Source: an uncultured Erysipelotrichaceae bacterium (GTDB lineage Bacteria; Bacillota_I; Bacilli_A; Erysipelotrichales; Erysipelotrichaceae). Taken from it: 64,000 nucleotides of DNA. The stretch is taken from the NCBI GenBank assembly GCA_949289855.1, contig CASEPS010000003.1, positions 6,587 to 70,586 of the forward strand, written 5' to 3'. Shown one piece after another: positions 16,833 to 51,586 of the stretch; position 1 is the first letter of the stretch, and every line of letters begins with the position of its first letter. Under the pieces are notes generated by a model. It was not told the origin of the DNA. It worked only from the letters and a program-made list of their open reading frames with translations, and did not search any database. The translations under genes and the position numbers were made by a program.

Positions 16833-16846
16833 GGGGGGAATCAGTC

Positions 16847-17521: not shown

Positions 17522-17542
17522 GTATTTTGTGAAAGACATGAT

Positions 17543-17572: not shown

Positions 17573-17607
17573 TTCTCTTATGGTACAATAGCGATTCGAG
17601 GTGTGTT

Positions 17608-34313: not shown

Positions 34314-34691
34314 ATGAATCGACATGAAGAACGGAAAAATGCCATGATCACGGTATACCAGTATCTGCTTGCCGAAAGAGATATTGATGAACTGATTGTG
34401 AATACGTATGAAAGGGAAGTGGATCAGGTAGATCCGTATTTTGTAAAGGTGATTAAAACAGCGATTGCCAACAAAGATACATATGCTGCCTGGATCGATG
34501 AAGTGCTGACAGACTGGAAGTTTGAAAGACTTGGTATGATAGAAAAGGCAATTCTGCTCAATGGTTGTGCAGAGTTTGCCCTTAAAGAGATCAGTGCAGC
34601 CATCATCATTGATGAATCGGTAGAACTTGCCAAGGAATATTGTGATGATGAAGCCTATAAACTGATCAACAGGGTTCTCGACATCATATGA
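34314..34691 (+). CDS. nusB: Transcription antitermination factor NusB
   Basis: RHEERKNAM, WKFERLGMIEKAIL, IIIDESVELAKEY and INRVLD motifs; ATG 34314 after AGGAG. Confidence 0.93.
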   Translation: MNRHEERKNAMITVYQYLLAERDIDELIVNTYEREVDQVDPYFVKVIKTAIANKDTYAAWIDEVLTDWKFERLGMIEKAILLNGCAEFALKEISAAIIIDESVELAKEYCDDEAYKLINRVLDII

Positions 34692-36103
34692 GCGAAAAGC
34701 GCGTCGTCAGTGTTTCAAGACTTGTCCGCTATCTCAAAGGACAGCTTGAAGGCAATGCAGTTCTGCACAGCCTTTATGTAGAAGGAGAAATTTCCAACCT
34801 GCGCAGACCATACAGTGGTCACTGGTACTTTTCTTTGAAAGATGAACAGTCCAGTCTTCCCTGTGTCATGTTCGCCAGTTCTGCAAGGAATGTGAAATTC
34901 CCGGTGAACAATGGTGACAAGGTGATTGTGCGCGGGGATATTGCGGTATATATGCCAGAAGGCAGAATGCAGCTGATTGTACAAGCCATGCAGCCAGGTG
35001 GTACTGGTGCCTTGTACTTACAGCTTGAAGCATTGAAAAAGAAACTGTTTGCGGAAGGCCTGTTTGATGAAGCACATAAGAAACCTCTGCCTGCATTCCC
35101 GATGCATATTGGTCTTGTGACCGGCAACAATACTGCCGCAAGATCGGATGTATTGATTACGTTAAAGAAACGCTGGCCTGTTGCTGAAATTCATGAATAC
35201 CCCTGTCCTGTACAAGGAGAAGGGGCAGCAGTGAAAATTGTAGAAGCGCTGCATAAGGCGGACGAAGGCAATCATGATGTGATTTTGCTGGTGCGTGGTG
35301 GTGGCAGTCTTGAGGACTTATGGTGTTTCAATGATGAAATGCTTGCCCGTACGGTATATGCAATGCATACACCAGTTGTGACAGGTGTTGGTCATGAAAC
35401 AGACACAACGCTTGTTGACTATGTCAGTGACCATCGTGCCAATACGCCAACTGGTGCAGTAGAAGCTGCCGTACCGGATATTCATGAGGTTAGAAAGCAT
35501 ATCAAAGACCTTGGGGTACGGATGACAAATGCGCTTGGTACAACCCTTCAGCATAAGCGGATGCAGCTGGACAGGCTTTCGAATAGTCCGGTATTCAGAA
35601 GTCCGGATATACTTTATCGGGACAAGGTGATGCGCCTTGATATTCTCAGGGAAAAGCTTGTACATTCGACTTCTGCTGCACAAAGAAAGAAGCTTTTGTT
35701 AAATGGTTTGCGCAACCGTCTTGTTACAATGGCAATGCGTGAATGCCATGTCTTGCAGGCCAAGACAAATGAACATAAGGCTGCCCTTATGCAATACAGC
35801 AGCCAGTCCATTACAAAGGCAAAGAACAGGCTTGACATCGATGCGGAAGCATTACACCGGAATATTGGCTATGTGCTGGAGACAAAGCGGCAGATGCTGG
35901 AAAAGGAAATGCGTTTACTCGATGCCTATTCTCCTTTGAAGGTGTTGGATCGCGGTTACAGCATTGTGACAAAAGATGATAAAGCGGTTATTGATGCGGT
36001 TACATTAAAGAAAAATGATCTTGTGACATTGCGATTTGCCAAAGGCAGTGCACAGGCAAAGATAGAAAAGACGATAGAGGAGGCAGAACATGCAGAAGGC
36101 TGA
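34688..36103 (+). CDS. xseA: Exodeoxyribonuclease VII large subunit
   Basis: VEGEISN, SGHWYFSLKD, RGGGSLEDLWCFN, GVGHETD and ANTPTGA motifs. Confidence 0.96.
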   Translation: MSEKRVVSVSRLVRYLKGQLEGNAVLHSLYVEGEISNLRRPYSGHWYFSLKDEQSSLPCVMFASSARNVKFPVNNGDKVIVRGDIAVYMPEGRMQLIVQAMQPGGTGALYLQLEALKKKLFAEGLFDEAHKKPLPAFPMHIGLVTGNNTAARSDVLITLKKRWPVAEIHEYPCPVQGEGAAVKIVEALHKADEGNHDVILLVRGGGSLEDLWCFNDEMLARTVYAMHTPVVTGVGHETDTTLVDYVSDHRANTPTGAVEAAVPDIHEVRKHIKDLGVRMTNALGTTLQHKRMQLDRLSNSPVFRSPDILYRDKVMRLDILREKLVHSTSAAQRKKLLLNGLRNRLVTMAMRECHVLQAKTNEHKAALMQYSSQSITKAKNRLDIDAEALHRNIGYVLETKRQMLEKEMRLLDAYSPLKVLDRGYSIVTKDDKAVIDAVTLKKNDLVTLRFAKGSAQAKIEKTIEEAEHAEG

Positions 36104-36302
36104 GAAGAAAACATTTGAAGAATCCATGCAGAGACTGGAAGAGATTGTTTCACTGCTTGAAACAAATGAACAGTCTCTTGATGAAACAGTGAAGCTTTTT
36201 GAAGAGGGTCTTACCCTTGTAAAGGATTGCGATGCCTCCCTGAAGAATTTTGAAAACAAGGTCAATGAACTGACTGAGAATGATGGGGGTGAACAGGCAT
36301 GA
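36090..36302 (+). CDS. xseB: Exodeoxyribonuclease VII small subunit
   Basis: TFEESMQRLEEIV...LDETVKLFEEG. Confidence 0.94.
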   Translation: MQKAEKKTFEESMQRLEEIVSLLETNEQSLDETVKLFEEGLTLVKDCDASLKNFENKVNELTENDGGEQA

Positions 36303-37138
36303 GAGTAGAAGACAGGCTTGTTGAAATGATGAATCATGTGGCTGACAGCCGTGTCAAAGAAGCGATGATATATTCTTTGATGGCTGGTGGCAAGCGCATT
36401 CGTCCAAATATGCTCTATGCAGCAGCGCATGGCTATGGGCTGCAGGATGAAGATGTGGATGCTTTTGCCTGTGCATTAGAGATGATTCATACATATTCTC
36501 TGATTCATGATGACTTACCGGCTATGGACAATGATGACCTTCGCCGTGGCAAGCCAACCTGCCATAAGCAGTTTGATGAAGCAACAGCAATTCTTGCCGG
36601 AGATGGTCTTTTGACATATGCATTTGAAACAGCCGCAACATGCAAAGCGGAACCAGCACGTGTGGTAAAGGCAATTGGTGTGCTTGCCAATATGGCAGGT
36701 CCTTCTGGTATGGTACTTGGACAGTGTCTCGATACAGAAGAAGGGGAAACTTCTGTAGACTGGGATGCTTTGATGAACATCCATGCCCATAAAACAGGTT
36801 GTCTGTTGTCTGCTGCATTGATGATTCCTGCTGTACTTGCTGGATGTGATGATAGCGTTGTAGAACAGTGGCATACGATTGGGGATATGATCGGGCTGGC
36901 TTTTCAGATTCAGGATGACATTCTGGATGTCACATTGACAGCTGAGGAGTTTGGCAAGAGTAACAGTGATGCGCGTAATGAAAAGGTGACAAGTGTTACA
37001 TTGCTTGGCCTTGCAGAGGCTGAAAAGAAAATGCATGAGCTTTATGCAGAAAGTGCAAAGAGGATAGAAGCGTTCAAGGGGTTTAAGGCTGAAGAGCTGC
37101 GTGAGCTGATTGAAGAAACAGCAGTGCGCAATAAGTAG
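36299..37138 (+). CDS. ispA: Geranyltranstransferase / farnesyl diphosphate synthase
   Basis: GGKRIRP, LIHDDLPAMDNDDLRRGKPT and FQIQDDILD motifs. Confidence 0.95.
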   Translation: MRVEDRLVEMMNHVADSRVKEAMIYSLMAGGKRIRPNMLYAAAHGYGLQDEDVDAFACALEMIHTYSLIHDDLPAMDNDDLRRGKPTCHKQFDEATAILAGDGLLTYAFETAATCKAEPARVVKAIGVLANMAGPSGMVLGQCLDTEEGETSVDWDALMNIHAHKTGCLLSAALMIPAVLAGCDDSVVEQWHTIGDMIGLAFQIQDDILDVTLTAEEFGKSNSDARNEKVTSVTLLGLAEAEKKMHELYAESAKRIEAFKGFKAEELRELIEETAVRNK

Positions 37139-37155
37139 GAGAGGGTGTATCTGTT

Positions 37156-39015
37156 ATGAATCTCTATGATATCCTTGGACCGCAGGACATCAAACATATG
37201 AACATCCGTGAGCTCAATGAGCTCGCTGGTGATATCCGCCGTTTTCTGATCCATTCGATCAGTGAAACTGGTGGACATCTTGCCAGCAATCTCGGTGTTG
37301 TTGAACTGACGATAGCCCTGCATTATGTGTTTGATTCACCACATGACAAAATATTCTTTGATGTTGGACACCAGTGCTATACCCATAAAATTCTGACTGG
37401 GCGGGCATCTTCCTTTGGAACATTGCGCCGTTACCATGGTCTCAGCGGCTTTGAAAAGCGTTCTGAAAGTGAACATGATGTATGGGAAGCAGGACATAGT
37501 TCGACATCTCTTTCAGCTGCCCTTGGTATGGCTGTGGCACGTGATCTCAATCATGAAAACTATGCGGTTGTGCCAGTGATTGGTGATGGTGCTCTTGGCA
37601 GTGGCATGGCGCTTGAAGCGTTAAATGAAATTGGTGAAGAAAAACGAAAGATGGTCATTGTGTTCAATGACAACAATATGTCTATTTCCAAAAATGTTGG
37701 TGCCATGGCAAAGAGTTTTGCCAATCTTCGTGCATCCAATGGATATAACAGATTCAAGGAAGGCCTGAAGGAAAACCTCAGCCATAATGACCTTGGCCGT
37801 TCGATTTATTCAGGTCTGATGTCATTCAAACAGGGTATCAAGGAAACCATTCTCGATGCCGGTATTTTTGGTGAATTCAACCTGGAATATATGGGACCGG
37901 TAGATGGACATAACATTGCGGACCTCATTCAGGTATTGCGTGTTGCAGAGAAACATGATGGACCTGTTGTTGTACATGTCATCACCCGTAAGGGTAAAGG
38001 TTACCGGTATTGTGAAAATGACCGGGAAGGCAGATGGCATGGTGTTGGACCATTTAACATTGATACAGGCAAGCCATTGCATGGTGTGCCGGAAGGCTAT
38101 GTCAAATGGGCGGATCTTTTCTCCAATACCGTATCTGATTTTGCGGATACAAACAAAGATATCATCGCCCTTACCCCGGCGATGATCCAGGGCAGTGGCT
38201 TGCAGAACTTTTTTGCAAAACACCCTGACCGTTCCTTTGATTGTGGTATTACAGAAGAGCACAGCATGACATTTGCGGCAGGTCTTGCCATTTCTGGCAA
38301 GCGTCCATACATTCCTGTCTACAGTTCTTTCCTGCAGAGGGCTTATGACCAGATCAACCATGATGTCTGCCGCATGGATTTGCCGGTAGTGATCGGTATT
38401 GACCATGCCGGACTTGTCGGGGATGATGGAGAAACCCACCATGGTATCTTTGATATTGGTCTTTTAAGACCAATTCCTAACCTCATCCTTGCCCAGCCAC
38501 GCAATGGTGATGAGGCACGCAATCTTCTCTATACCGCCTTCCATCAGAAACATCCATTCGCAATCCGCTATCCAAAGGGTGTTGTAAGAAAACCAGCAGA
38601 AGAGAATATCCAGGAAATTGCAATTGGTTCCTGGGAAATGCTTTCTGTAACAGATCATGATAAGGCGTATCTTCTTGCATATGGACCAGCGGTCAATACG
38701 ATTTATGAAAAGCTCAAAGGCAATGAGATTCCGGTAACGGTGATTAACTGCCGTTTCTTCAAGCCGATGGATGAAGAGATGTTAAGGGAAATTGCTGAAA
38801 GTGAAAAACCAGTGCTCGTTTATGAGTCTGATATGTTAAGTGGAGGATTAGCTGAAGCAATTCTTGGCTGGTTGTGCGATAATGGACTTACTATGAAACT
38901 GCACAGGATGGGAATTGGTGATCATTATGTGCAGCAGGGGGCTGAGACGCGGTTGCGTAAGGAAATGCATATTGATCTCAATTCCATCATAGATGAATTG
39001 AACAAGATTATATGA
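37156..39015 (+). CDS. dxs: 1-deoxy-D-xylulose-5-phosphate synthase
   Basis: GGHLASNLGVVELT, DVGHQCYTHK, GHSSTS, IGDGA...NDN and CGITEEH motifs. Confidence 0.96.
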   Translation: MNLYDILGPQDIKHMNIRELNELAGDIRRFLIHSISETGGHLASNLGVVELTIALHYVFDSPHDKIFFDVGHQCYTHKILTGRASSFGTLRRYHGLSGFEKRSESEHDVWEAGHSSTSLSAALGMAVARDLNHENYAVVPVIGDGALGSGMALEALNEIGEEKRKMVIVFNDNNMSISKNVGAMAKSFANLRASNGYNRFKEGLKENLSHNDLGRSIYSGLMSFKQGIKETILDAGIFGEFNLEYMGPVDGHNIADLIQVLRVAEKHDGPVVVHVITRKGKGYRYCENDREGRWHGVGPFNIDTGKPLHGVPEGYVKWADLFSNTVSDFADTNKDIIALTPAMIQGSGLQNFFAKHPDRSFDCGITEEHSMTFAAGLAISGKRPYIPVYSSFLQRAYDQINHDVCRMDLPVVIGIDHAGLVGDDGETHHGIFDIGLLRPIPNLILAQPRNGDEARNLLYTAFHQKHPFAIRYPKGVVRKPAEENIQEIAIGSWEMLSVTDHDKAYLLAYGPAVNTIYEKLKGNEIPVTVINCRFFKPMDEEMLREIAESEKPVLVYESDMLSGGLAEAILGWLCDNGLTMKLHRMGIGDHYVQQGAETRLRKEMHIDLNSIIDELNKII

Positions 39016-40655
39016 TCAGACATCTGTATATTAAAAACTTTGTATTGATTGATGAGCTGAATCTCGATTTTGAAGAAGGATTCAGCGCCTTTACTGGTGA
39101 AACAGGTGCTGGCAAATCCATCCTGATCGATGCGATTTCTCTGCTTTGTGCAGAGCGGGCCAGCGCCTCTTTTATCATGAAAGGAAAAGATAAAGCCATT
39201 ATTGAGGGTACATTCACCTTCAATAAGAATTCCCATGCGGCACGTGTATTGGAAGAAGCAGGTTTTGAATTAGAGGAGGAAACGACATTTACACGTGAAC
39301 TGCATGCATCTAACAAAAGTGTTACCCGTATTGATCACAGGGTTGTGACCTTGTCTCTTTTGCGGGAAGCTTTGCAGGATGAAATCGACATCCATGGTCA
39401 GCGGGACAATGCCTATCTTCTCAAGGACAGTCTGCATATTCATCTGTTGGACAGATATCTGCAGGATGATGAATTGTTACGTGAAGTGCGTACAAAATAT
39501 GATGTATTGCGCCGCCTGCAAAAGGAAAAAGAGGAGGCATTAAACAGCACCTATAACGAAAATGATCTGAGTTACTTTTCTTACCAGATCAAAGAAATAG
39601 AAGAAGCAGACCTTACACCAGGTGAAGATGAACAGCTGGAAGCGAAAGAAAGACAGTACAAGGCAGTCAAAGACTCTTATGACAAGCTCAATGCCATCTT
39701 TACAACTTATGATGAAGAAGTTTCGGGTGGTCTCTATAACATGTTGCGGGCTATTGAATCCCTGAAGGCAGATGAAGAGATGGAAAAGGTGCAGTCAGCT
39801 TTCAGCGATGCCTATTACAACATGGTAGATGCTTTGGAAACGCTTGGAAACATGCGTGCTGCATTGGATATGTCAGAAGATGAGATCAATGCCATGGAAG
39901 AGCGTCTCTATACGATACAGAAGCTCAAGCGGAAGTATGGCCGAACCATTGAAGACATCCTGACCAAAAAGGATGAATTGCAGCAGCAGGTGGATATGTT
40001 TGCCCATAAGCAGGAATATCTTGACAGGATTGACAAAGAGATTTCAGCTGCCCAAAAGGCATATGATGCATGTGCAAAGAAACTGCATGATGTGCGCACA
40101 AAGGGATGTAGAAAGCTCGATGAAGAAGTGATGGTTCATCTAAAAGAGCTGATGCTGCCAAATGCAAGATTCAAGACTTCCATTACTGAAGGCAAACCAT
40201 CAGTGAATGGTAGTGACAAGGTTGAGTTCCTGATTTCCATGAATAAAGGTGAAGATCTCAAACCACTTTCCAAAACGGCTTCTGGTGGTGAACTATCAAG
40301 ACTCATGCTTGGACTCAAAGTCATCTTTACAAGACTGCAGGGGATTGAGACCGTCATCTTTGATGAAATTGATACTGGTGTCAGCGGTCCTGTCGCAACA
40401 TCCATCGGTAAGGAAATGCGGGCTTTATCCAAAACATGTCAGGTGTTTGCGGTTACCCATCTTGCTCCGGTCGCAAGTTGTGCTGACACGCAATATCTTG
40501 TTTCCAAAGCAAGTGATGAAACAGATACAAGAACAACTGTGACGCAGCTCAATGAGGATGGCAGAATCCGTCAGCTTGCCCTGATTTCTTCTGGTGAGAT
40601 AACAGAAGCTTCTTTGCAGGCCGCAAGAGAACTGTTTGAAAGGAACAGAAGCTGA
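39012..40655 (+). CDS. recN: DNA repair protein RecN
   Basis: TGETGAGKS, ASGGELSRLML, FDEIDTGVSG and VTHLAPVA motifs. Confidence 0.96.
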   Translation: MIRHLYIKNFVLIDELNLDFEEGFSAFTGETGAGKSILIDAISLLCAERASASFIMKGKDKAIIEGTFTFNKNSHAARVLEEAGFELEEETTFTRELHASNKSVTRIDHRVVTLSLLREALQDEIDIHGQRDNAYLLKDSLHIHLLDRYLQDDELLREVRTKYDVLRRLQKEKEEALNSTYNENDLSYFSYQIKEIEEADLTPGEDEQLEAKERQYKAVKDSYDKLNAIFTTYDEEVSGGLYNMLRAIESLKADEEMEKVQSAFSDAYYNMVDALETLGNMRAALDMSEDEINAMEERLYTIQKLKRKYGRTIEDILTKKDELQQQVDMFAHKQEYLDRIDKEISAAQKAYDACAKKLHDVRTKGCRKLDEEVMVHLKELMLPNARFKTSITEGKPSVNGSDKVEFLISMNKGEDLKPLSKTASGGELSRLMLGLKVIFTRLQGIETVIFDEIDTGVSGPVATSIGKEMRALSKTCQVFAVTHLAPVASCADTQYLVSKASDETDTRTTVTQLNEDGRIRQLALISSGEITEASLQAARELFERNRS

Positions 40656-41827
40656 TGGCAAGGGTGTACTTTCATATTGATATGAACGCCTTCTTTGTCA
40701 ACGCAGAGATCCTTCTTGATCCTTCCCTCAAAGGCAAGCCAGTAGCGGTTTCCGGCACAACAAGAAGAAGTGTTGTCAGCACGGCTTCGTATGAAGCACG
40801 TGCTTTTGGTGTTCATAGTGCCCAGCCGATTCAGGAAGCCATAAAACTCTGTCCAGACCTTGTCATTGTTTCTGGTCATTATCAGTATTACCGTGAACTG
40901 TCCGAACAGTTCATGAATATTGTGAAGCGTTATACTTCAGAAATCGAACAGGCTAGTATTGATGAATGCTATGCGGATGTGACAGATACCATTATGAAGC
41001 TTCAAAGACCACTGGACCTTGCGGTGAGAATTCAAAAAGAAATACTGACAGAACTTGGCCTGCCATGTTCCATAGGGGTAGGACCGAATATGTTTCTTGC
41101 CAAGATGGCAAGTGATATGAAGAAGCCGATGGGTATTACGGTATTGCGCATCCGTGATGTAAAAGACAAGATGTGGCCATTGCCCATTGGGGATATGCGT
41201 GGGGTTGGCAAAAAGACAGAACCATTACTGCTTGCTTTAGGTATTAAAACTATTGGGGATCTTGCGCATTACAAGGATATGACAAAGCTGGAAAAGATCT
41301 TTGGCAAGAATACAGAGTTTATGATGAAACGGGCACATGGATATGATGAACGTGAAATTGTCAAAGAATGGGATGCAAAGTCAATGGGTGTTTCAGAAAC
41401 ACTGCTGGAAGATGTAACGGATTATGAAGAACTCAGAGGCCTTTACAGAACGCTTTCCAGAAAACTTTCCCAGCGGATGAAGAAGGACAGAAAGCTTGGC
41501 ACTACGTTGTCTATCCGTATCAAGTATTTTGACTTCCGCAATGTTGACAGAAGCATACGCCTGGATCAACCGATCTGGAGAGGGGAGGACATCCTCGATA
41601 AGGCGATGGAATTGTTCGATGATAACTGGGATGGAGAACCGGTCAGACTGGCTGGTATTTCCCTTTCAGGCTTGAAGAATGGGGATGAACTTGTCACACA
41701 GCTCAATCTCTTTAACAATCCGGAAGAAGATAAACGGGAAACAGCATTTGTCTTGCAGGACCTTAACCGCCAGTTATCCGGAAAGGTATTCAGAAGGGCA
41801 AGTGACCTTCTCAAGGATAAATCATGA
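40655..41827 (+). CDS. dinB: DNA polymerase IV
   Basis: HIDMNAFF, STASYEARAFGV, SIDECY and AKMASDMKKPMG motifs. Confidence 0.95.
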   Translation: MARVYFHIDMNAFFVNAEILLDPSLKGKPVAVSGTTRRSVVSTASYEARAFGVHSAQPIQEAIKLCPDLVIVSGHYQYYRELSEQFMNIVKRYTSEIEQASIDECYADVTDTIMKLQRPLDLAVRIQKEILTELGLPCSIGVGPNMFLAKMASDMKKPMGITVLRIRDVKDKMWPLPIGDMRGVGKKTEPLLLALGIKTIGDLAHYKDMTKLEKIFGKNTEFMMKRAHGYDEREIVKEWDAKSMGVSETLLEDVTDYEELRGLYRTLSRKLSQRMKKDRKLGTTLSIRIKYFDFRNVDRSIRLDQPIWRGEDILDKAMELFDDNWDGEPVRLAGISLSGLKNGDELVTQLNLFNNPEEDKRETAFVLQDLNRQLSGKVFRRASDLLKDKS

Positions 41828-42759
41828 AACTGGAAAAAGCATTGAAGCAGTACCTTGTACAGCAGAATATCAATGATGGCAAAAGTGAGAATACAATTGA
41901 GGCCTACAGCAGCGATTTAAGGCAATATACGGGCTTTCTGCAAAAGAATGGTATAGATGATACAGAAGATATCATTTATGCCTATATCGATGATTTTATG
42001 CATCAGCAATCCAAATCAAAATCATCCGCTTCTCTTTCCCGTATGGCGGCAGCTATCCGTTCTTTTCACCAGTTTCTTGCCTTTATGTATGATGAAACAG
42101 ATCCAAGTTTAAACCTGCAGGTAAGACAGGCAGAACACAGACTTCCTGTATTCTGTACAAAAGAAGAAATTGCAAGACTCATGGCTTCATTTGATGATCA
42201 TGACCCGGAACAACTCTTACAGCATACGATTCTTGAGCTCATCTATTCCTGTGGCTTAAGAGTCTCGGAAGCAGTGAATCTTGAGATAAACAGAGTGGAC
42301 ATCACTTCTGGCAAGTTAAGGGTTCTTGGTAAAGGCAACAAGGAAAGAATTGTACCAATTCCTTCTGGTACAATTCCACTATTAAAGAACTACATATCCA
42401 AAGCCAGATCAATATTCCTCAAACAGAATACAAACCTGTTCTTCATCAACAGGTTTGGCCGTAAGGTAACACCACAATCTGTGGAACTTCTGTTACAGAG
42501 AAAATGCAACGAACTCAATTTCAAGAAACATATCACACCACATAAGTTAAGACATTCCTATGCCACACATATGTTACAGGGAGGTGCAGACCTCAGAAGT
42601 ATTCAGGAAATGTTAGGACATTCCGACATACAGACAACTGAGATCTATACCCATGTACAAAACCAGCAAATGTTTACAGCTTATGAGAAGTTTCATCCAG
42701 GTGAAATGGATGACACAATTGATAATATTGTTGTCAGTAAAAAGTCAAAAAGTAAATGA
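41824..42759 (+). CDS. xerD: XerD-like chromosomal tyrosine recombinase
   Basis: SENTIEAYSSDL, CGLRVSE (Arg), GKGNKERIVP (Lys), HKLRHSYATH (HxxR), QEMLGHSDIQTTEIY (Tyr); cotranscribed with recN-dinB. XerC versus XerD identity is not certain. Confidence 0.85.
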   Translation: MKLEKALKQYLVQQNINDGKSENTIEAYSSDLRQYTGFLQKNGIDDTEDIIYAYIDDFMHQQSKSKSSASLSRMAAAIRSFHQFLAFMYDETDPSLNLQVRQAEHRLPVFCTKEEIARLMASFDDHDPEQLLQHTILELIYSCGLRVSEAVNLEINRVDITSGKLRVLGKGNKERIVPIPSGTIPLLKNYISKARSIFLKQNTNLFFINRFGRKVTPQSVELLLQRKCNELNFKKHITPHKLRHSYATHMLQGGADLRSIQEMLGHSDIQTTEIYTHVQNQQMFTAYEKFHPGEMDDTIDNIVVSKKSKSK

Positions 42760-42778
42760 TAATTGCATGCAATCTGAC

Positions 42779-42802
42779 AAGCCCTTGGAAACAAGGGTTT
42801 TC
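42779..42802 (+). terminator. Terminator of the nusB...xerD operon
   Basis: AAGCCCTTG-GAAA-CAAGGGTTT followed by TC/ATTT. Confidence 0.8.
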
Positions 42803-42810
42803 ATTTATAA

Positions 42811-42838
42811 ATATTGCATAACATACATTATGCGAAGT
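42811..42838 (-). other. dif-like 28-bp chromosome dimer resolution site
   Basis: Minus strand ACTTCGCATAA-TGTATG-TTATGCAATAT: 11-6-11 layout, resembling B. subtilis ACTTCCTAGAA-TATATA-TTATGTAAACT and E. coli GGTGCGCATAA-TGTATA-TTATGTTAAAT; lies at the gene-orientation switch. Confidence 0.85.
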
Positions 42839-42884
42839 AGAATATCGCTAGTGATGTTATGCATTTTTTTCTGTTTTCATTATA

Positions 42885-42910
42885 AAAACATGCAGTTTTT
42901 CAACTGCATG
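42885..42910 (-). terminator. Terminator of the minus-strand ybjQ-like gene
   Basis: Minus strand CATGCAGTT-GAAA-AACTGCATG followed by TTTT. Confidence 0.8.
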
Positions 42911-42913
42911 CAA

Positions 42914-43525
42914 TTATTCTTCTTCATCGATGACAACACTTGTTCCTGTTGCTGTGATGCCTATCATAGAGCCACAAAAGTTTTCATGTTCAATACGGAC
43001 TCCAACAATGGCGTTACCTTGTAACATCACAGCTTTTTCCTTCATCCTGGCTATTGCTATATTTTCTGCATAAGCCAGTTTATCTCGATATAACGTCGAT
43101 TCTGTGCCAGTAAAGTCCGCAAAACCTGCCGCAAAATCACTGACGAAGCCTGTACCAACAACAGTATGACCAGAGACGATACCACAGTACTTTCTGATTG
43201 GTTTTCCTTCAATGGTATTGGTCGTAGTTAACAGGATTGCTGAACAATCTTCTTGTTTCCTGACTTCTTTACGCTTGCCGTTGAAATGGTTCTTGATGTC
43301 ATCTATGACAGCCTGTGGGAAATTGTTCTGTTGTGCTTTTTCAATTGTCTGCTTTTCATCCGCATCGATTGCTTCAAGAGTTGTGTACTTTTGGGATATG
43401 CGGAATGGCTTGAGCTTCTCAAGACATTCAGAACATAGAATTGTATATACACCAATCTGGTTTGGAATATTTGTAATTCCGTTTGGCTTCTTTCCACATA
43501 CGCTGCATATTGCTTTTGCTGACAT
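42914..43525 (-). CDS. YbjQ/UPF0145 heavy-metal-binding domain protein with N-terminal Zn-ribbon-like region
   Basis: C-terminal LLTTTNTIEGKPIRKYCGIVSG...GNAIVGV...TATGTSV; N-terminal CSVC and CSEC; start reassigned to MSAKA. Confidence 0.8.
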   Translation of the reverse strand: MSAKAICSVCGKKPNGITNIPNQIGVYTILCSECLEKLKPFRISQKYTTLEAIDADEKQTIEKAQQNNFPQAVIDDIKNHFNGKRKEVRKQEDCSAILLTTTNTIEGKPIRKYCGIVSGHTVVGTGFVSDFAAGFADFTGTESTLYRDKLAYAENIAIARMKEKAVMLQGNAIVGVRIEHENFCGSMIGITATGTSVVIDEEE

Positions 43526-43559
43526 ATTCCCTTCTCTCCTTTTGTGAATCAAATCACAT

Positions 43560-43871
43560 TTATTCAGCTGGTTGTAAGAGTATGATGGCATATACAGTGT
43601 TGATCTGCATTGGCCAGCTTTCCGCTATTTTGCCATCACAGAATACTTTCACTTCATCGCCAATGTTGAAGTGCGTCATACTGTCCCCGTTTTCTACGTC
43701 GATTGATACACTATACTCCCCTTTGTTGTTTTCAATGAGTATTCTGTCTTTCCTTGTTTCAATGACTGTACCTTCAATACCCGGCTCATGTTCAATGATG
43801 TAATTCATATCCCTTGAACATCCTGTTAACAGTATTGATGATAACAGGATAGTCTTACTCAGTTTTCCCAT
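43560..43871 (-). CDS. Small lipoprotein, YobA/DUF3221-like OB-fold
   Basis: Lipobox LLTGC; IGDEVKVFCDGKIAESWPMQI motif. Confidence 0.75.
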   Translation of the reverse strand: MGKLSKTILLSSILLTGCSRDMNYIIEHEPGIEGTVIETRKDRILIENNKGEYSVSIDVENGDSMTHFNIGDEVKVFCDGKIAESWPMQINTVYAIILLQPAE

Positions 43872-44779
43872 GGCAATCTTATCCCATTGATTCCGATAAC
43901 AAACGTGTTTTCTGCCTGCTTATAGGTTGGATAAGCATCGGCTTTATGGATGGTGAGTCCTTCAACAGAGTAGTCTTTATTAGTATTACAAACCCCTTTG
44001 AGAACATACTGCACAGCGTCATATGTTATCGTATTGCCTTCTGGTTCTGCTGGTGAAGTATCCAGTGGTTTATTTACATCGATGCCATAGAATGACAAGA
44101 GCTTTGCTGTTGCGGGATAACAGTGACTGAATGACTTACGGAATGCTGTGCAATAGTCACATTCACATTGTTCTGTATCTTCTTTGTACCACGCTGCTGT
44201 TTCTTCTATTTGTGTATTGAGAAACAGTTCTGGTTCTATCATCCAGTGACTGGTCACATTGCGGTAATGTTCATAAACCGGGTGTTCACCATTCAGGTTC
44301 ATCTGGTACATGCGGAAGTTGACCAGGAAATCTTTTGGCATCCAGTTCTCTTCATATGTATAACAGTATTGCATGCCAAGCTTCTGCATGATCCTGCCAC
44401 TTGCAGGGTTCAATGCATCATGGGTAGCAGTGATGTATGGCTGTCCTTCTTCTTTGAGTACAGCAATAAGCGCATTTGCTGCCTCTGTCACATAGCCTTT
44501 GTTCTGGTATGGTTTAAGTATGGCATAGCCAAGGTCATATGGTTCTTTACAGGACAAATTGACATAACCAATGGGAATATTATCTTCCTTCATGCAGATG
44601 GCATATTGTCTGTTCTTTTGTGGATCGCAATGTTTCTCAAACCAGGTTTCTGCTTCTTCCATATCCTTCAATGGATACCATGGCAGGAAACGGTTGATGT
44701 CAGAGCTGCTGTAAATGATGAAAAATGCCTGAAGATCTTCTTTTGTAAATGGTCTGATGATGAGTCTTTCTGTAATCAT
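43859..44779 (-). CDS. RimJ/RimL-type GNAT acetyltransferase fused to a Cys-rich (CxCxxC) domain
   Basis: ITERLIIRPF, LGYAILKPYQNKGY and NPASGRIMQKLGM motifs; C-terminal QCECDYC domain. Confidence 0.8.
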   Translation of the reverse strand: MITERLIIRPFTKEDLQAFFIIYSSSDINRFLPWYPLKDMEEAETWFEKHCDPQKNRQYAICMKEDNIPIGYVNLSCKEPYDLGYAILKPYQNKGYVTEAANALIAVLKEEGQPYITATHDALNPASGRIMQKLGMQYCYTYEENWMPKDFLVNFRMYQMNLNGEHPVYEHYRNVTSHWMIEPELFLNTQIEETAAWYKEDTEQCECDYCTAFRKSFSHCYPATAKLLSFYGIDVNKPLDTSPAEPEGNTITYDAVQYVLKGVCNTNKDYSVEGLTIHKADAYPTYKQAENTFVIGINGIRLPWEN

Positions 44780-44840: not shown

Positions 44841-45122
44841 TTATCTGACTTTGTCCTTGAGACTCTTGGAAGCCTTGAAGCCAGGAATCTTAGTTGCTTC
44901 AATGTTGATTTCTTCACCAGTCTGTGGGTTGACACCTTTGCGGGCAGCTCTTGTCTTGACTTCGAATCTGCCAAAACCAGTAATATCTACGCGGTCACCT
45001 CTGACAAGTGCTTCGCTCATGGAATCAAACAATGTATCAATGATTTCAAGAGCATCTTTCTTTGTCATTTTGAAATTGTCAGAAAGTGTTTCCGCAAGCA
45101 TTTTTTTGTTTGTGATATTCAT
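44841..45122 (-). CDS. hup: Histone-like DNA-binding protein HU
   Basis: GFGRFEVKTRAARKGVNPQTGEEINIEA...PGFKASKSLKD. Confidence 0.96.
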   Translation of the reverse strand: MNITNKKMLAETLSDNFKMTKKDALEIIDTLFDSMSEALVRGDRVDITGFGRFEVKTRAARKGVNPQTGEEINIEATKIPGFKASKSLKDKVR

Positions 45123-45207
45123 TATAAAACCTCCGAACAGGCACTATATTACTATACTCACGGATGGTGAAGCAAGCAAAATATAGCGTAGAACAATGAA
45201 ATATCTG

Positions 45208-46158
45208 TTATGCATGTATTGCTTTGTGCAGCTCGATGAGAATGGCTTCAATATCCTCTTTCGTAAGATTTTTGACACCACTTGCATTCGGATGTCCACC
45301 ACCATTAAACTGCTGGGCAATTTCATTGATGATGACATGTTTGGAACGCAATGAACCGTGGTAAAGCCCCGGGTGTTCATCACTTTCCGTAAAGATGGCC
45401 CAGACTTCAAATTCCCGGACATGTCCCAGTTCATCAATATAATTTCTTGCCTGTCCACCTGTCATATGCCACTTTGCAAGGTCTTCCTTTGTAAAGATGG
45501 CATAGGCAATACCATCTTCAAAAGTGACCTTGCTGCGGAGTGCATTCTGAAAGGTAAATACAGCATACGGAACATCAAACAGGTCTCTATTGACATCTGC
45601 GACATCAATTCCCTTAGAAACCAGATAAGCGCCTGTTTCAATGGTATGTGACGTTGTGTTATTTGTCCTGTAACAAAGCGTATCTGTCAGGATACCACGA
45701 TACAGGTATAATGCCGTATCAAAGCTGATGAAATAGTCCTCTTCAAATGTTTTGAAGAAATCGGTGAGAATTTCACATGTAGCTGCTGCCAGAGGATTGA
45801 CAATACATGGATCACCATATGGTTCGCGATTTGGATGATGGTCTACCTTGATGAGGCGTTTTGCACTTGTAGCACGGGCATCATCAATACGGGCTGTATT
45901 TGCTGTATCGAGGACTATGGCAGTGCTGTTTGCGATGACTTCATCTGAAACAACATCACCAACAAGAAAATCACACTGGGTTGTGGATTCATAGCCCAAA
46001 GCATAGACTTTCTTTTCCGGGAAGTTATCTTTGATCCATGAATAGAGCCCCCATTGTGAACCTAGGGCATCACAATCAGGGTGTTCATGGCGGAAGATGG
46101 TGATGATGTCTGCTGTGGCAATCGCCTCAAGCAGTGTATCAAACATGGTATTTGTCAT
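45208..46158 (-). CDS. nrnA: DHH/DHHA1 oligoribonuclease / pAp phosphatase NrnA
   Basis: RHEHPDCDALGSQ, LDTAN, VDHHP, GILTDT and GGGHPNASG motifs. Confidence 0.92.
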   Translation of the reverse strand: MTNTMFDTLLEAIATADIITIFRHEHPDCDALGSQWGLYSWIKDNFPEKKVYALGYESTTQCDFLVGDVVSDEVIANSTAIVLDTANTARIDDARATSAKRLIKVDHHPNREPYGDPCIVNPLAAATCEILTDFFKTFEEDYFISFDTALYLYRGILTDTLCYRTNNTTSHTIETGAYLVSKGIDVADVNRDLFDVPYAVFTFQNALRSKVTFEDGIAYAIFTKEDLAKWHMTGGQARNYIDELGHVREFEVWAIFTESDEHPGLYHGSLRSKHVIINEIAQQFNGGGHPNASGVKNLTKEDIEAILIELHKAIHA

Positions 46159-47354
46159 TACAGATGTAACAGTGATGCCGTGTCACGGGCAATCATCAGT
46201 TCCTCATTTGTCGGAATGACCCATACCTGTACTTTGCTGTCAGGTCTTGAAATCAAAGCTTCTTTGCCACGGATTGTGCTGTTGAGTTCATAATCAATGG
46301 AAAGCCCCATCGCTTCTTCAAGACCCTTGAGAATTCTCTCTCTGATTTCGCTGTCGTTTTCACCAAGTCCTGCTGTAAAGGCAATTGCATCAACATGACC
46401 AAGCTGTGCATAATAGCCACCTGCCACATTGACCACGCGATTTGTGTAAACGTCTACTGTCAGGATTGCACGCTCATTACCTTCATGTACGGCAGCCTGG
46501 ATATCACGGGCATCAGAGGAAATTCCAGAAAGACCGAGCATACCGGACTTCTTGTTGAGGATCGTATCCATTTCATCCGGTGTAAGATTTAGTTTCTTCA
46601 TCATGTAGAAGACAACCGTTGGATCGATATCACCACATCTTGTGCCCATCATAATGCCACCAAGTGGTGTAAGACCCATGGATGTATTGACTACCCTGCC
46701 ATTGCGGATAGCAGTAATGGAAGCACCATTACCAAGATGGCAGGTGAGCATATTCAATGTATTGACATCTTTTCCCATCAGTTCAGCAGTACGTCTGTTG
46801 ACATAGTAATGGGATGTGCCATGGGCACCATATCTTCTGATCTTATGGTCTGTATACCATTCATACGGTACCGGGAAAAGATATGATTCCGGTGTCATTG
46901 TCTGATGGAAAGCTGTATCAAAGACAAAGACATGTTTGATGGAAGGCAGTGCTTCTACAAAGGCACGATAGCATACAAGGTGGGCAGGATTGTGCAAAGG
47001 CGCAAGTTCTGCCAGTTCTTCTACCTTTTCGACAACACTTTCATCAACGACGACAGAGCTGTCAAAGTAGGAACCACCCTGGACAATACGGTGTCCTGCC
47101 GCATCAATTTCACTGAGGTCTTTGATAATACCATTATCAGTAAGGCTCTTGAGAAGCATTTCGACCGCTGCCTTATGGTCAGGAAGAGGCAGTTCAGCCG
47201 CCTTCTTCTCACCATTGTATTTGATGGTAAAAGCACCCATTTCCTGGCCGATTCTCTCGGCCTGTCCACTGCAGAGTACCGTTTCAGACGGCATGTCAAA
47301 CAACTGGAACTTCAGGGATGAAGATCCCGCATTCACTGAAATAATCTTGCTCAC
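46158..47354 (-). CDS. ackA: Acetate kinase
   Basis: NAGSSSLKFQ, GHRIVQGG, LAPLHNP, FDTAFH, GAHGTSH, CHLGNGAS and PTNEELMIAR motifs. Confidence 0.97.
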   Translation of the reverse strand: MSKIISVNAGSSSLKFQLFDMPSETVLCSGQAERIGQEMGAFTIKYNGEKKAAELPLPDHKAAVEMLLKSLTDNGIIKDLSEIDAAGHRIVQGGSYFDSSVVVDESVVEKVEELAELAPLHNPAHLVCYRAFVEALPSIKHVFVFDTAFHQTMTPESYLFPVPYEWYTDHKIRRYGAHGTSHYYVNRRTAELMGKDVNTLNMLTCHLGNGASITAIRNGRVVNTSMGLTPLGGIMMGTRCGDIDPTVVFYMMKKLNLTPDEMDTILNKKSGMLGLSGISSDARDIQAAVHEGNERAILTVDVYTNRVVNVAGGYYAQLGHVDAIAFTAGLGENDSEIRERILKGLEEAMGLSIDYELNSTIRGKEALISRPDSKVQVWVIPTNEELMIARDTASLLHL

Positions 47355-47683
47355 AATTTTCCTCCTTCAATTTCAGTATTGATACATTCCTGTATAAGTG
47401 CATCCATTGTCTCATCTGCGTTTGTACGCATCTGTTCATATAATGCCATACGTTTGTTAAATGAAGCGACAAGATGCAGTTTTTCTTCATAATTGGACAA
47501 TTCCTGACGGCATCTTTTCAATGCATCGGAAACCGCCGCCCGGGAGATACCTTCATTTTCAGCAATTTCTGCAAGTGAATAATCTTCCCGGTAATAATCT
47601 TCAAAGAAGCGTTTCTGTTTCTCAGTCAGTAAAGACCCATAGAAATCGAACAGTTCGTTATAGTCCTCGCGTTTACTGGACAC
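47351..47683 (-). CDS. ylxM: YlxM/UPF0122 sigma-like HTH protein
   Basis: LFDFYGSLLTEKQ...DYSLAEIAENEGISRAAVSD; GTG start 47683 after GGAGG. Confidence 0.9.
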   Translation of the reverse strand: MSSKREDYNELFDFYGSLLTEKQKRFFEDYYREDYSLAEIAENEGISRAAVSDALKRCRQELSNYEEKLHLVASFNKRMALYEQMRTNADETMDALIQECINTEIEGGKL

Positions 47684-48644
47684 CTTTGAGTCCCTCCGAA
47701 ATACTATAGAGATACGAATCAAGATCAAATGGTCTCAGGTCTTCCGCATGTTCACCAAGACCAATAAAGATCACCGGTACATGCAGCTTATGCTTGATGG
47801 CAAGAATGATGCCGCCTTTGGCTGTACCATCCATCTTGGTGAGGATAATACCTGTCAGTTTTGTGCTTTCCGCAAATACTTCTGCCTGGGAAAGACCGTT
47901 CTGACCGGTTGTTGCGTCCAGCACAAGCCAGGTGTTATGTGGTGCACCTTCAATCTCTTTGCCAGATACACGGTTCATCTTGGCAAGTTCCTGCATGAGA
48001 TTTGTTTTGTTCTGCAGCCTTCCTGCTGTGTCACATAACAGAATATCAGCACCTTTTTCTTTTGCAAACCGGCATCCATCAACGATAGCAGCACTTGGAT
48101 CACCATTTTCCCTGCCTTTGATCGTAGGAACATTGAGTCTTTCTCCCCATTTGGCAAGCTGTTCAATCGCACCAGCACGGAATGTATCTGCTGCAACAAA
48201 AGCAACTTTCTTTCCCTGTTTCTGGTACATGAGGGCAAGCTTTGCAGCAGAGGTCGTCTTGCCTGAACCATTGACACCTTCAAGAAGAATGACTGTAGGA
48301 CCATTATCGTTATAGACAATTGGTACATCCGGATATTCTTCATAAATGTCCTTCATAATTTCAAGCAGGAAATTCATTGCCCAGTGAAATGTAATACCAG
48401 GATAGTTATCACATTTTTCCTTCAGCCTTTCACAGATGAGATCTGCTAATTCAATACCAACATCGCTTTCCAGCAAAACAATAGTCAATTGTTCAAGAAA
48501 TTCATCATCCACACCATGAAAGGAATAACTCATTTCATTCAATGCATCAGAGAAAGTCTGCTTTGTTTTCTCAAAACCACTGAGATAAACTGCCTTATCA
48601 TCTTTCTTCTGAAACATTTCCTTCAGTTTGGAAAAGAAACTCAT
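47673..48644 (-). CDS. ftsY: Signal recognition particle receptor FtsY
   Basis: GVNGSGKTT, DTFRAGA, DTAGRLQ and TKMDGTAKGG motifs. Confidence 0.97.
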   Translation of the reverse strand: MSFFSKLKEMFQKKDDKAVYLSGFEKTKQTFSDALNEMSYSFHGVDDEFLEQLTIVLLESDVGIELADLICERLKEKCDNYPGITFHWAMNFLLEIMKDIYEEYPDVPIVYNDNGPTVILLEGVNGSGKTTSAAKLALMYQKQGKKVAFVAADTFRAGAIEQLAKWGERLNVPTIKGRENGDPSAAIVDGCRFAKEKGADILLCDTAGRLQNKTNLMQELAKMNRVSGKEIEGAPHNTWLVLDATTGQNGLSQAEVFAESTKLTGIILTKMDGTAKGGIILAIKHKLHVPVIFIGLGEHAEDLRPFDLDSYLYSISEGLKGVQ

Positions 48645-51586
48645 GCCTGTTCCTCCTTTTCACTATCTGCCATCTGCATGGCATCTTTCAATGTGACCTT
48701 CAGCATCTGGGAAACACCCTGATGCTGCATGGTCACACCAAAGAGTACATCTGCTTTTTCCATCGTACCTACACGGTGGGTGACAACGATGAACTGCGTG
48801 TTATCCGTATAGTTGTGCAGATATTGTGCAAACCGCTCAACATTGCCTGGGTCAAGGGCAGCTTCTACTTCATCGAGAATGACAAGTGGTACTGGTCTGA
48901 CCTTGAGAATGGCAAACAATACACAAAGGGCAATCAATGACTTCTCACCACCGGAGAACAACATATTGTTGCGGATGGTCTTGCCAGGTGGCTGGGCATT
49001 GATATCAATACCGGTGTTCAACAGATCATCCGGCTCACAAAGGATGAGCTCTGCCCTTCCCCCACCATAGAGACTTGTGAATATCGTATTGAATTCACGG
49101 TTGATTTCATCAAAAGTCTCTTTGAACTGCTTTTTCATGACACTGTCCATTTCATCAATAGCAGAAAGAATCTTGTCACGTGAATCGGTGAGTTCAGCTA
49201 TCTGCTGCTTCATCGTTTCATAGCGTTCATTAACTTCATTATACTCCTCTGGCGCATTCATGTTGATATTGCCAAGGCGCTGAATTTCTGCACGCAATGC
49301 GGAAACTTCTTCTTTTGCCTTTGCAAGATCTTCCGTATCCGCATCCTGCATCCTGACACTGGCTGATTCATATGTCAGCTGGTATTCAGACGCAAGGCGC
49401 TGCAGGTTATTGTCAAGCTTTGTTTCAAGACGTCCCTGGTCTACTTCGATGGCATGGTAGGAAGACTCTGCCATGGAGAGGTCTTTGCGGATCTGACGAA
49501 GCTGTGCTTCTTTGCGTTCCGCATCCGCATTTTCCTTTAATCTTCTTTCGCGGTAGGAACGGATTTCTGCCGTCAGGTTGTCACGCTTTGAATAGGATTC
49601 ATTCAAAGCCGTAATCAGACTGTCATCTGTTTCCTCTGTTTCTTCATGCATGGACTCACCAAGCAGAATGAGATCATTCTTCAGCTTTTCATACTTTGCC
49701 TTCTTGGCATCGATGACAGGTTCAATCGCTGCAATAGACCTGGTCAGTTCCTGGTTTCTGTCACGCTGTTGTTCCTGGATGGCATTTGCTTCAGAAAGCT
49801 TCTTGCGGGCAAGTGCTTCCTCAGCATGTTTTGCATCAAGCTTCTGCAGGATTTCTTCATATTCCTTCTGCATCGTCATGATGTTTGTGGCATTGCGCAT
49901 CTTGCCACCAGTCATGGAACCACCGCGGTGGATGACTTCGCCATCAACCGTTACAATCTTGTACATGCGTTTTGTCAAAGCGGAAAGTTCATTACCAGCT
50001 TCCATACTGTCACAGACAAGGACATTGTTCAAAAGGGAATCCACTACCGGATCAAATTGTCTTTCATTTTCGACAAAGTCACTGGCTACCCCAAGGAAGC
50101 CCTTTGTATTTTCACAGATGATCAAAGCATCTTTGGCTACCCATCTTGGCTGACAGACAGTCAAAGGCAGAAATGTTGCGCGGCCTGACTGGTTGCGTGT
50201 CAGAAAGCGGATCGCATCACGGGCACAGGCATCATCGATGGTCACAATATTATTCATCGCTCCACCAAGGGCTGTAGAAACAGCTTCTTCATAGCCGCTT
50301 TTCGGTTTTAATACCTGACCAATAACACCAAGAATGCCATGCAGGGCATGCTGGTGGTCCATGATGGCACGGATACCTGCCTGGTTGTTAAATGGATTTC
50401 TTTGAATCTGTTCGATGACATTTTTCCTGTTTTCCAGATTTCTCACCATCGTAGAAGCCTGCTGCAATGTTGTTTCACAGGTCAGAATCTCCTGTGCCTG
50501 GTGGGCAATCTTCTCACTATTCAGCTTTCTTTCTGTTTCAAGGGTGGAAAGGCGGTTGAGACGATCCTCATATTCGGCTTTTGCTTCCTGGAGAAGCCGT
50601 CTTGTTTCTTCCCTTTTCTGCTCTGCATTACCGGTCTCGATGATATATTTACGCTTTTCATCAAGTTCTGTACGCCTTGCCTCAAGAGACTGGATTTCAT
50701 CCACTGTCTTCATGAGGGCATCCTGCATCGCATTGATTTCCTTATCAAGGGTATTGGATGAATTACGGGCTTCCTGGATTCTTGTTTCAGACACAAGGAT
50801 GTTTGTCTTATACATGGTCATCTTTGCATCAATGTCAAACATCGTCTCTTTGGCACTGTCAATCGCAGCATTGATCTCATGGATGTCCTGTACAAGAACA
50901 GCTATTTCTATCTCTTCCAGCCTGTTTTTCTTTTCCCGGTAGATCTCTGCCTTACGGGCTGCTTTCTTTAAAGGCGAAACCTGTTTTTCCAGCTCCAAAA
51001 GAATATCATTGCTGCGTTCGAGGTTATCCTTTGTCCGCTCAAGTCTTGATAATGACTCCATACGTCTTTTGCGGTATTTGGCAACACCGGCAGCTTCTTC
51101 AAAGATGCCACGTCTTTCCGTTGGCTTTGCGTCCGCAAAAGAAACGACATTACCCTGGGAGATGATGCTCAAAGAATCTCTGCCAAGACCTGTATCCAGA
51201 AACAGATCAACAACATCGCGCAATCTGACGTTTTTCTTGTTGATGAGATATTCCGCATCACCGGAATCCCGATACAGACGGCGGGTGACTTCTATTTCTT
51301 CCAGTTCACTATTCAATACATGACTGCCATTATCAAAAACAAGTGTAACTTCAGCCATGTTGAGTCTTCTTCTGTCCGCACTGCCGGCAAAGATGACATC
51401 GTTCATCTTTTCACCGCGCAGACTTTTTGCACTCTGTTCGCCAAGCACCCATCTTACCGCATCTGAGATGTTGGACTTGCCACATCCGTTCGGACCGACA
51501 ACACCTGTCAGAGGATGGTCAAAGGTGATGACTGTTTTATCCGCAAAGGATTTGAATCCCTGCATTTCTATTCGTTTTAAAAACAT
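48641..51586 (-). CDS. smc: Chromosome segregation protein SMC (short, 981 aa)
   Basis: GFKSFAD, GPNGCGKSN, hinge GEVIHRGGSMTGG, FSGGEKSL and LDEVEAALD motifs. Confidence 0.96.
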   Translation of the reverse strand: MFLKRIEMQGFKSFADKTVITFDHPLTGVVGPNGCGKSNISDAVRWVLGEQSAKSLRGEKMNDVIFAGSADRRRLNMAEVTLVFDNGSHVLNSELEEIEVTRRLYRDSGDAEYLINKKNVRLRDVVDLFLDTGLGRDSLSIISQGNVVSFADAKPTERRGIFEEAAGVAKYRKRRMESLSRLERTKDNLERSNDILLELEKQVSPLKKAARKAEIYREKKNRLEEIEIAVLVQDIHEINAAIDSAKETMFDIDAKMTMYKTNILVSETRIQEARNSSNTLDKEINAMQDALMKTVDEIQSLEARRTELDEKRKYIIETGNAEQKREETRRLLQEAKAEYEDRLNRLSTLETERKLNSEKIAHQAQEILTCETTLQQASTMVRNLENRKNVIEQIQRNPFNNQAGIRAIMDHQHALHGILGVIGQVLKPKSGYEEAVSTALGGAMNNIVTIDDACARDAIRFLTRNQSGRATFLPLTVCQPRWVAKDALIICENTKGFLGVASDFVENERQFDPVVDSLLNNVLVCDSMEAGNELSALTKRMYKIVTVDGEVIHRGGSMTGGKMRNATNIMTMQKEYEEILQKLDAKHAEEALARKKLSEANAIQEQQRDRNQELTRSIAAIEPVIDAKKAKYEKLKNDLILLGESMHEETEETDDSLITALNESYSKRDNLTAEIRSYRERRLKENADAERKEAQLRQIRKDLSMAESSYHAIEVDQGRLETKLDNNLQRLASEYQLTYESASVRMQDADTEDLAKAKEEVSALRAEIQRLGNINMNAPEEYNEVNERYETMKQQIAELTDSRDKILSAIDEMDSVMKKQFKETFDEINREFNTIFTSLYGGGRAELILCEPDDLLNTGIDINAQPPGKTIRNNMLFSGGEKSLIALCVLFAILKVRPVPLVILDEVEAALDPGNVERFAQYLHNYTDNTQFIVVTHRVGTMEKADVLFGVTMQHQGVSQMLKVTLKDAMQMADSEKEEQA

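Follow-up and report, generated by a model that had tools for sequence, protein, structure and literature searches.

Why does the gene for a Xer recombinase end only 51 nt from a dif-type recombination site, and do the two form a self-contained unit? This question is raised by a 64,000-nucleotide stretch of DNA (contig CASEPS010000003.1, hereafter the window) from an uncultured Erysipelotrichaceae bacterium. A sequence-only reading had placed the replication terminus at this point and had proposed a compact xer-dif module, taking tight linkage as typical of single-recombinase systems. Our analysis indicates that the 28-bp site is very probably the chromosomal dif at the replication terminus, with its adjacency to xer being an inherited terminus architecture of the order Erysipelotrichales. 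The host is an uncultured member of the Erysipelotrichaceae, with Bulleidia and Solobacterium among its relatives. Its nearest GTDB genome, a metagenome-assembled genome (MAG) of the same family, has 94% Xer identity, and remoter relatives are labelled Solobacterium, Bulleidia, or Erysipelotrichaceae. The exact Xer protein was seen on metagenomic contigs only, and the DNA was present in chicken-gut and other gut metagenomes.

The 28-mer, ACTTCGCATAA-TGTATG-TTATGCAATAT, lies on the minus strand at 42811-42838, in a non-coding gap of 154 bp between the stop codon of xer and that of a ybjQ-like gene (42914, minus strand). The features at and around the site are as follows.

41824..42759, plus strand: xer, encoding a XerC/D-family tyrosine recombinase of 311 amino acids (aa) (NCBIfam, Pfam, solved structure, synteny)
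41968, no strand: maximum of cumulative G-C in the window (skew switch)
42779..42810, plus strand: intrinsic terminator of the xer operon (hairpin 42779-42800), CCCTTG-GAAA-CAAGGG plus a T tract, reaching the edge of dif
42811..42838, minus strand: dif site of 28 bp, unique in the window, low in G+C, and conserved in relatives with unalignable flanks
42838-42828, minus strand: invariant arm of dif, ACTTCGCATAA (XerC-arm position)
42827-42822, minus strand: central region of dif, TGTATG
42821-42811, minus strand: xer-proximal arm of dif, TTATGCAATAT (XerD-arm position)
42878..42911, minus strand: intrinsic terminator of the ybjQ-like gene (hairpin 42911-42888), GCATGCAGTT-GAAA-AACTGCATGT plus TTTTTAT

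Membership in the dif class was judged by the criteria of Carnoy & Roten 2009 (PMC2731167). With up to 3 mismatches allowed, the 28-mer matched nowhere else in the window and in none of 100 dinucleotide-preserving shuffles, and its copy number was one in the window and one per related contig. The left 12-nt half-site also occurred once, with no second half-site or hybrid site in the window. The G+C content of the site was 8/28 (29%), compared with approximately 43% in the window and 41-44% locally. The 28-mer has an 11-6-11 structure with palindromic arms, ACTTCGCATAA being identical at 8 of 11 positions to ATATTGCATAA, the reverse complement of the right arm, and the XerD-position arm shares 8 of its 11 positions with canonical XerD arms. 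The two GAAA-loop hairpins converge on dif from either side, and three terminator-like sites were found where 0.2 were expected. The coordinates of the 28-mer, the 51-bp spacing, the 154-bp gap, and both converging terminators given by the sequence-only reading were thus reproduced, as was its description of a canonical-type 28-bp dif.

Gene orientation and GC skew both change sign at this point. Using a crude call of non-overlapping open reading frames (ORFs), 33 of 41 genes to the left of the site were on the plus strand and 22 of 23 to the right on the minus strand; the lone plus-strand ORF shadows the HU gene in antisense, so that the minus strand carries every real gene to the right. The earlier counts (36 of 43 and 24 of 24) were close to these. 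GC skew averages approximately +0.08 to the left and -0.07 to the right, and its cumulative maximum (41968) is approximately 850 bp from the site within the 64 kb analyzed. Additionally, all 14 GNGNAGGG motifs of the KOPS/SRS class in the window are oriented toward dif. The site lies at the replichore junction, where the converging operons of both replichores end. No structural variants at dif were found among the contigs of this species from four metagenome runs, and the flat contig depth in these runs makes a marker-frequency gradient unreadable.

To follow the pair through related bacteria, contigs encoding Xer relatives were scanned for the 28-mer. A near-identical site was found 3' of xer in seven related loci (62-94% Xer identity), always on the strand opposite to xer and at distances of about 40 bp to 7.7 kb from its stop codon.

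L001, Xer identity 94%: dif about 40 bp from the xer stop
L005, Xer identity 81%: dif 1.2 kb from the xer stop, with a variant central region
L007, Xer identity 75%: dif about 420 bp from the xer stop
L009, Xer identity 68%: dif about 790 bp from the xer stop
L012, Xer identity 64%: dif 5.6 kb from the xer stop
L013 (Solobacterium MAG), Xer identity 62%: dif about 1.2 kb from the xer stop
L003 (Bulleidia), Xer identity 62%: dif 7.7 kb from the xer stop

The site was absent from the downstream DNA available for L002 (4.6 kb), L008 (1.6 kb), and L010 and L011 (10 kb each, with insertion sequence elements). The 28-mer is an island of conservation, because the surrounding intergenic DNA is unalignable. 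Among the eight sites found independently of the site sequence, the ACTTCGCATAA arm varied at one position and the xer-proximal arm at five. The synteny of xer and the 28-mer across relatives, which the sequence-only reading had named as a check, is therefore present, with diverged flanks.

In the opposite direction, metagenome contigs were searched with a 19-nt core of the site (TTCGCATAATGTATGTTAT), yielding 116 stretches, of which 86 had the clade-type right arm (TTAT[GA]C[GA]...) and represented 53 lineages after dereplication by flank identity. The core search fixes 19 of the 28 positions, and the conservation of those positions is unreadable from this set. Over 100 independent contigs carried the site, their flanks having diverged. 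A xer gene was found within 5 kb of dif in 27 of 33 informative lineages, on one strand and in one relative orientation throughout, with Xer identities of 45-94%, and hu was found on the other side of dif in 25 of 32. The distances were distributed as follows.

xer flank, 33 informative lineages: up to 150 bp, 6; 151-1000 bp, 11; 1-5 kb, 10; none within at least 3 kb, 6
hu flank, 32 informative lineages: up to 150 bp, 12; 151-1000 bp, 6; more than 1 kb, 7; inverted, 3; none within at least 3 kb, 4

These results point to a xer-dif linkage that is evolutionarily conserved and not accidental. The linkage of hu-nrnA-ackA-ylxM-ftsY-smc to dif is about as tight as that of xer, and hu lies at least as near dif as xer does. 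The recurrent order is nusB-xseAB-ispA-dxs-recN-(dinB)-xer running toward dif, with hu-nrnA-ackA-ylxM-ftsY-smc converging on it from the other side, and it spans two deep groups to which NCBI gives the label Erysipelotrichaceae. In some lineages, xer and dif are separated by insertions of more than 10 kb or by inversion. In the window, the two flanking operons occupy the following positions.

34293..41827, plus strand: upstream cluster nusB, xseA, xseB, ispA, dxs, recN, dinB (NCBIfam, Pfam; same order in at least 20 related loci)
44841..51586, minus strand: operon hu, nrnA, ackA, ylxM, ftsY, smc (NCBIfam, Pfam), converging on dif from the other replichore

The start codon of xer overlaps the stop codon of dinB (ATGA), making xer the last, translationally coupled gene of the housekeeping cluster nusB-xseAB-ispA-dxs-recN-dinB-xer.

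The same layout extends to wider relatives. Some core matches combined the same left arm and centre with a canonical XerD arm, e.g., TTATGTAAATT or TTATGTAAACT. On one such contig, L128 (recN...dinB...xer, ending 1.5 kb before dif), the recombinase passes the XerD equivalog model (331.1 vs. 329.6 bits), and its nearest named relatives are XerD proteins of Thomasclavelia ramosa. In complete-genome contigs of T. ramosa, the gene order is xseAB-ispA-dxs-rrmJ-recN-spoIVB-azlCD-dinB-orf-xerD-metalloenzyme-orf, and a site, ACTTCGCATAATGTATATTATGTAAATT, lies at the convergence point 1.6 kb after xerD. The T. ramosa locus resembles the window in the order xseAB-ispA-dxs-recN-dinB-xerD followed by dif, in the left arm, and in orientation; it differs in the 1.6 kb with two genes between xerD and dif, in the centre (TGTATA), in its canonical XerD arm (TTATGTAAATT), and in the larger genome (3.55-Mb contig). 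Because T. ramosa, with a XerD so named by NCBI and a canonical XerD arm, shares the linkage, xerD-dif linkage is a feature at the level of the order and is older than any loss of XerC.

A contig of one T. ramosa strain (L136, ERZ27273803 contig_60, 12594-20939) carried two tandem 5.68-kb units that begin directly beside dif and are absent from L135. They encode Rep_trans, a Zot-like protein, and small ORFs, and at the junction between the copies (ACTTCGCATAATGGTAGGAAATGTA) the ACTTCGCATAA arm is kept beside unrelated sequence, forming a hybrid site. From its gene content and junction, this element looks like a filamentous prophage (IMEX) integrated at dif by Xer in a Gram-positive host, which would be indirect evidence that the orthologous T. 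ramosa site is recombinogenic in vivo.

Further elements were observed near dif or xer in individual lineages. In L005 (1-8254) and L006, the Xer is 81% identical to that of the window and near-identical in the catalytic half, and the genes before it are, in place of dinB, an HNH/RRXRR endonuclease and small ORFs without assigned function; the variant dif of L005, approximately 1.2 kb 3' of xer, reads ACTTCGCATAA-CGTGCA-TTATACAATTT. When both loci were examined for phage or plasmid origin, the HNH endonuclease was the sole recognisable feature, and the locus may have arisen by insertion of an island or be a mobile copy. In another lineage (L044, L059, L063, L072, L087, and related contigs), the orientation of dif with respect to the hu-smc operon is reversed, and no xer gene lies within 7.6 kb. 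Between hu and dif stands a small resolvase-like helix-turn-helix gene, with ABC exporter genes on the far side. One end of this rearrangement falls at the terminus. In the metagenome contigs L019 (672-2651), L029 (2704-4683), and L043, two tandem tyrosine-recombinase genes lie between xer and dif; their products (319 and 338 aa) are 28-31% identical to Xer, and the pair, which ends 192 bp from dif, may be a mobile element targeting the neighbourhood of dif. A scan of viral contigs for the dif core returned one unrelated canonical-type site, AAGTTCGCATAATGTATGTTATGTTAAAT (L134 from IMG/VR, 1603-1630), which represents either the dif of a host next to a prophage or an attachment site of a phage.

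The product of xer has the Pfam domains Phage_integrase and SAM_1 (a SAM-like N-terminal domain), and its closest solved structure is E. coli XerD (1a0p). The catalytic residues R-K-H-R-H-Y are intact, the segments GLRVSE, GKGNKER, HKLRHSYATH, LGHSD, and EIYTHV aligning to E. coli XerD. Among the NCBIfam models, XerD (TIGR02225) gave 282.3 bits (curated cutoff, 329.6), XerC 272.3 bits (335.2), and the subfamily NF001399 270.2 (279), all below the cutoff; the XerS model gave 120.6 bits (267) and the XerA model 215 bits, near its cutoff of 220. The syntenic gene passes the XerD cutoff in L128 and carries the XerD name in T. ramosa. The window Xer is best read as a diverged XerD orthologue. No second Xer gene was found by tblastn in the window or in 136 loci, all of them terminus neighbourhoods, and no Xer census for the Erysipelotrichaceae was found in the literature.

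In Bacillus subtilis, CodV and RipX act at the dif sequence ACTTCCTAGAATATATATTATGTAAACT. The window resembles this Firmicute XerCD/dif system in its 28-bp 11-6-11 site with the left arm ACTTC...AA and the right arm TTATG..., in the position at the terminus, and in a XerC/D-family recombinase for which XerD is the best model. It differs in that xer is 51 bp from dif, whereas in B. subtilis it is far away, and in that the XerD-position arm departs from the canonical TTATGTAAACT and is less conserved, with a Xer that scores below the cutoffs. By the established XerCD/dif mechanism (PMC5357621), a sister-chromosome dimer arising from an odd number of crossovers would be processed by an FtsK/SpoIIIE-type translocase that brings both copies of dif into alignment at the septum, and Xer recombinases on the four arms would exchange strands across the 6-bp centre TGTATG to give monomers. 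The adjacent XerD-lineage protein most likely binds the variable, xer-proximal arm, and a XerC-type partner encoded elsewhere would bind the invariant ACTTCGCATAA arm. This assignment follows from position and from co-variation, canonical XerD occurring with a canonical arm and diverged Xer with a diverged arm.

Several points weigh against dif at the terminus with an inherited neighbouring xer. Skew, gene orientation, and motif polarity are all confounded with the coding strand; the polarity of GNGNAGGG (14:0) ranks only 28th among 1738 motif families, and since the top families are codon-driven, motif polarity cannot be separated from coding strand. The skew maximum and the uniqueness of the site hold for the 64-kb window. 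Of the two arms, the one at the XerD position shows the lower conservation, whereas XerD arms are as a rule the better conserved (PMC3025954, PMC2731167). The window Xer falls under both the curated XerD and the curated XerC cutoffs. None of the seven FtsK-gamma contacts of E. coli XerD (E119, Q123, I127, E184, Y187, W188, H257) is kept; these residues, taken from PMC5052618, diverge even in Haemophilus influenzae, and across phyla the comparison is a weak test. Finally, binding to dif and recombination there by the adjacent Xer are predictions.

The claim of a compact module stands in part. A dif-type site and a conserved link to xer (27/33 lineages) are present, but the evidence does not support a module of the xerS-difSL type, which is characterized by an invariant link, nothing else conserved in terC, a monocistronic gene, and an atypical site just upstream of it (Le Bourgeois et al., PMC1914069). 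None of these four traits is found here: the distance between xer and dif spans 40 bp to over 10 kb, and 6 of 33 lineages lack xer for at least 3 kb from the site; conservation extends to the operons on both flanks; the start of xer overlaps the stop codon of dinB; and the site is a canonical one of 28 bp with a 6-bp centre, located downstream past a terminator. The streptococcal and lactococcal XerS/difSL system (PMC1914069) is alike in that the recombinase gene adjoins the terminus site, and unlike in its 31-bp site with an 11-bp centre upstream of monocistronic xerS, XerCD being absent there. The XerH/difH system of epsilon-proteobacteria (PMC2731167, PMC5241119) shares palindromic arms and site-gene linkage in most species; it differs as a distant clade (PDB 5jjv, E = 4e-18) with an established single recombinase and a difSL-type site. 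Linkage of XerH to its site was described as "in most species" (Carnoy and Roten, PMC2731167), and by this looser usage xer of the present clade is genetically linked to dif. Archaeal XerA/dif has a canonical kind of 28-bp site and a model score near the cutoff (215 vs. 220 bits), a comparison made by model score; it is unlike the window in being an archaeal, established single-recombinase system. Tight linkage is also no mark of a single recombinase, as T. ramosa shows this xerD-dif layout together with a protein named XerD and an arm of the canonical XerD type.

Would the adjacent Xer nevertheless bind both arms, as in XerS/difSL or XerH/difH, with the linkage itself under selection? We consider such a self-contained single-recombinase module unlikely. 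In its favor, the linkage is kept across 45-94% Xer identity with a constant orientation; the arms of the commonest clade site, ACTTCGCATAA and AAATCGCATAA, are mirror-symmetric at 9 of 11 positions, the XerD-position arm having shifted from the canonical TTATGTAAATT to the mirror; one arm is invariant and the XerD-position arm degenerate, against the general rule; and the Xer is below the XerD and XerC equivalog cutoffs, has no paralogue in the window or any locus (terminus neighbourhoods only), and keeps 0 of 7 FtsK-gamma contact residues. The near-mirror arms, the degenerate arm, the model scores, and the contact residues are each weak pointers. Arm symmetry was rejected as a discriminator, because canonical XerCD-type sites sharing the left arm are already symmetric at 8 of 11 positions. 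Moreover, xer belongs to a housekeeping cluster and is translationally coupled to dinB, the linkage of the hu-smc flank is about equally tight, xer and dif can be parted by more than 10 kb of cargo or by an inversion, and T. ramosa shows the same linkage with canonical XerD and arm. A specific form of this idea, in which a Bulleidia/Solobacterium-like branch with reduced genomes lost XerC and a XerD-derived protein resolves dimers alone on a remodelled, near-mirror dif, seems equally doubtful; if true, the loss of XerC would represent an independent origin of a single-recombinase system within the XerCD lineage, not the acquisition of a foreign module.

It is far less probable that the flip in orientation and skew is an inversion breakpoint or island boundary and not the terminus, which would make the 28-mer the attachment site or remnant of some mobile element. 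The view is limited to 64 kb, integrative elements mimic dif-like sites (PMC5357621), and the L005 Xer (81% identity) lies behind mobile-looking genes; against this, housekeeping operons lie on both flanks, the convergent junction is conserved across the order, structural variants are absent from the metagenomic contigs of the species that span the site, the window has neither a second half-site nor a hybrid site, and the change of skew from plus to minus is that of a terminus. As the 28-mer is short and AT-rich, a chance palindrome might also be considered, an explanation to which we give practically no weight: there were no matches in 100 shuffles, and it is refuted by the conservation of the site on over 100 independent contigs whose flanks have diverged. 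The adjacency of xer and dif is accordingly read as conserved terminus synteny, because hu-smc is about equally linked, xer belongs to an operon, separations are tolerated, and the layout of T. ramosa is the same. The terminus architecture of the Erysipelotrichales consists of ..recN-(dinB)-xerD and hu..ftsY-smc converging on dif, and is compacted in this small genome, where the interval between xer and dif is free of cargo genes.

On the other side of dif, the window carries additional genes.

42914..44779, minus strand: lineage-specific cargo between dif and hu, comprising a YbjQ-domain protein, a DUF3221 protein, and a GNAT acetyltransferase (Pfam)

This cargo is confined to the close relatives of the window (L001, L052, L130-133), and in most other lineages hu abuts dif. 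The gene adjoining dif (42914-43591, minus strand) encodes a Cys-rich N-terminal region (weak DUF4428 match) fused to a YbjQ domain. Elsewhere in the window, rnc (16847-17521, plus strand) and smc-ftsY-ylxM (47351-51586, minus strand) lie on opposite arms and strands. B. subtilis has rnc-smc-ftsY-ylxM side by side and co-directional; the separation of rnc from smc-ftsY-ylxM therefore suggests a past inversion across the terminus. Between 24364 and 29098, G+C drops to 36-38% (vs. approximately 44%), and five successive plus-strand ORFs without a Pfam match are followed by an ABC-transporter ATPase; this stretch may be an acquired island. Four successive ORFs without a Pfam match at 3605-5864 (minus strand) are among the few blocks against replichore orientation. 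Neither Rfam families at the gathering threshold nor tRNA genes were found in the whole window.

Taken together, these results fix the terminus and the dimer-resolution site for a group of poorly studied, mostly uncultured gut and oral Firmicutes. In the Erysipelotrichales, the neighbourhood of the terminus, where dif is flanked by xerD and, opposite, by hu-ftsY-smc, is unusually stable, and it cautions that linkage alone is no ground for inferring a single-recombinase module. Additionally, the canonical arms of T. ramosa and the mirrored arms of Bulleidia-like bacteria provide a natural series for the evolution of Xer-dif specificity.

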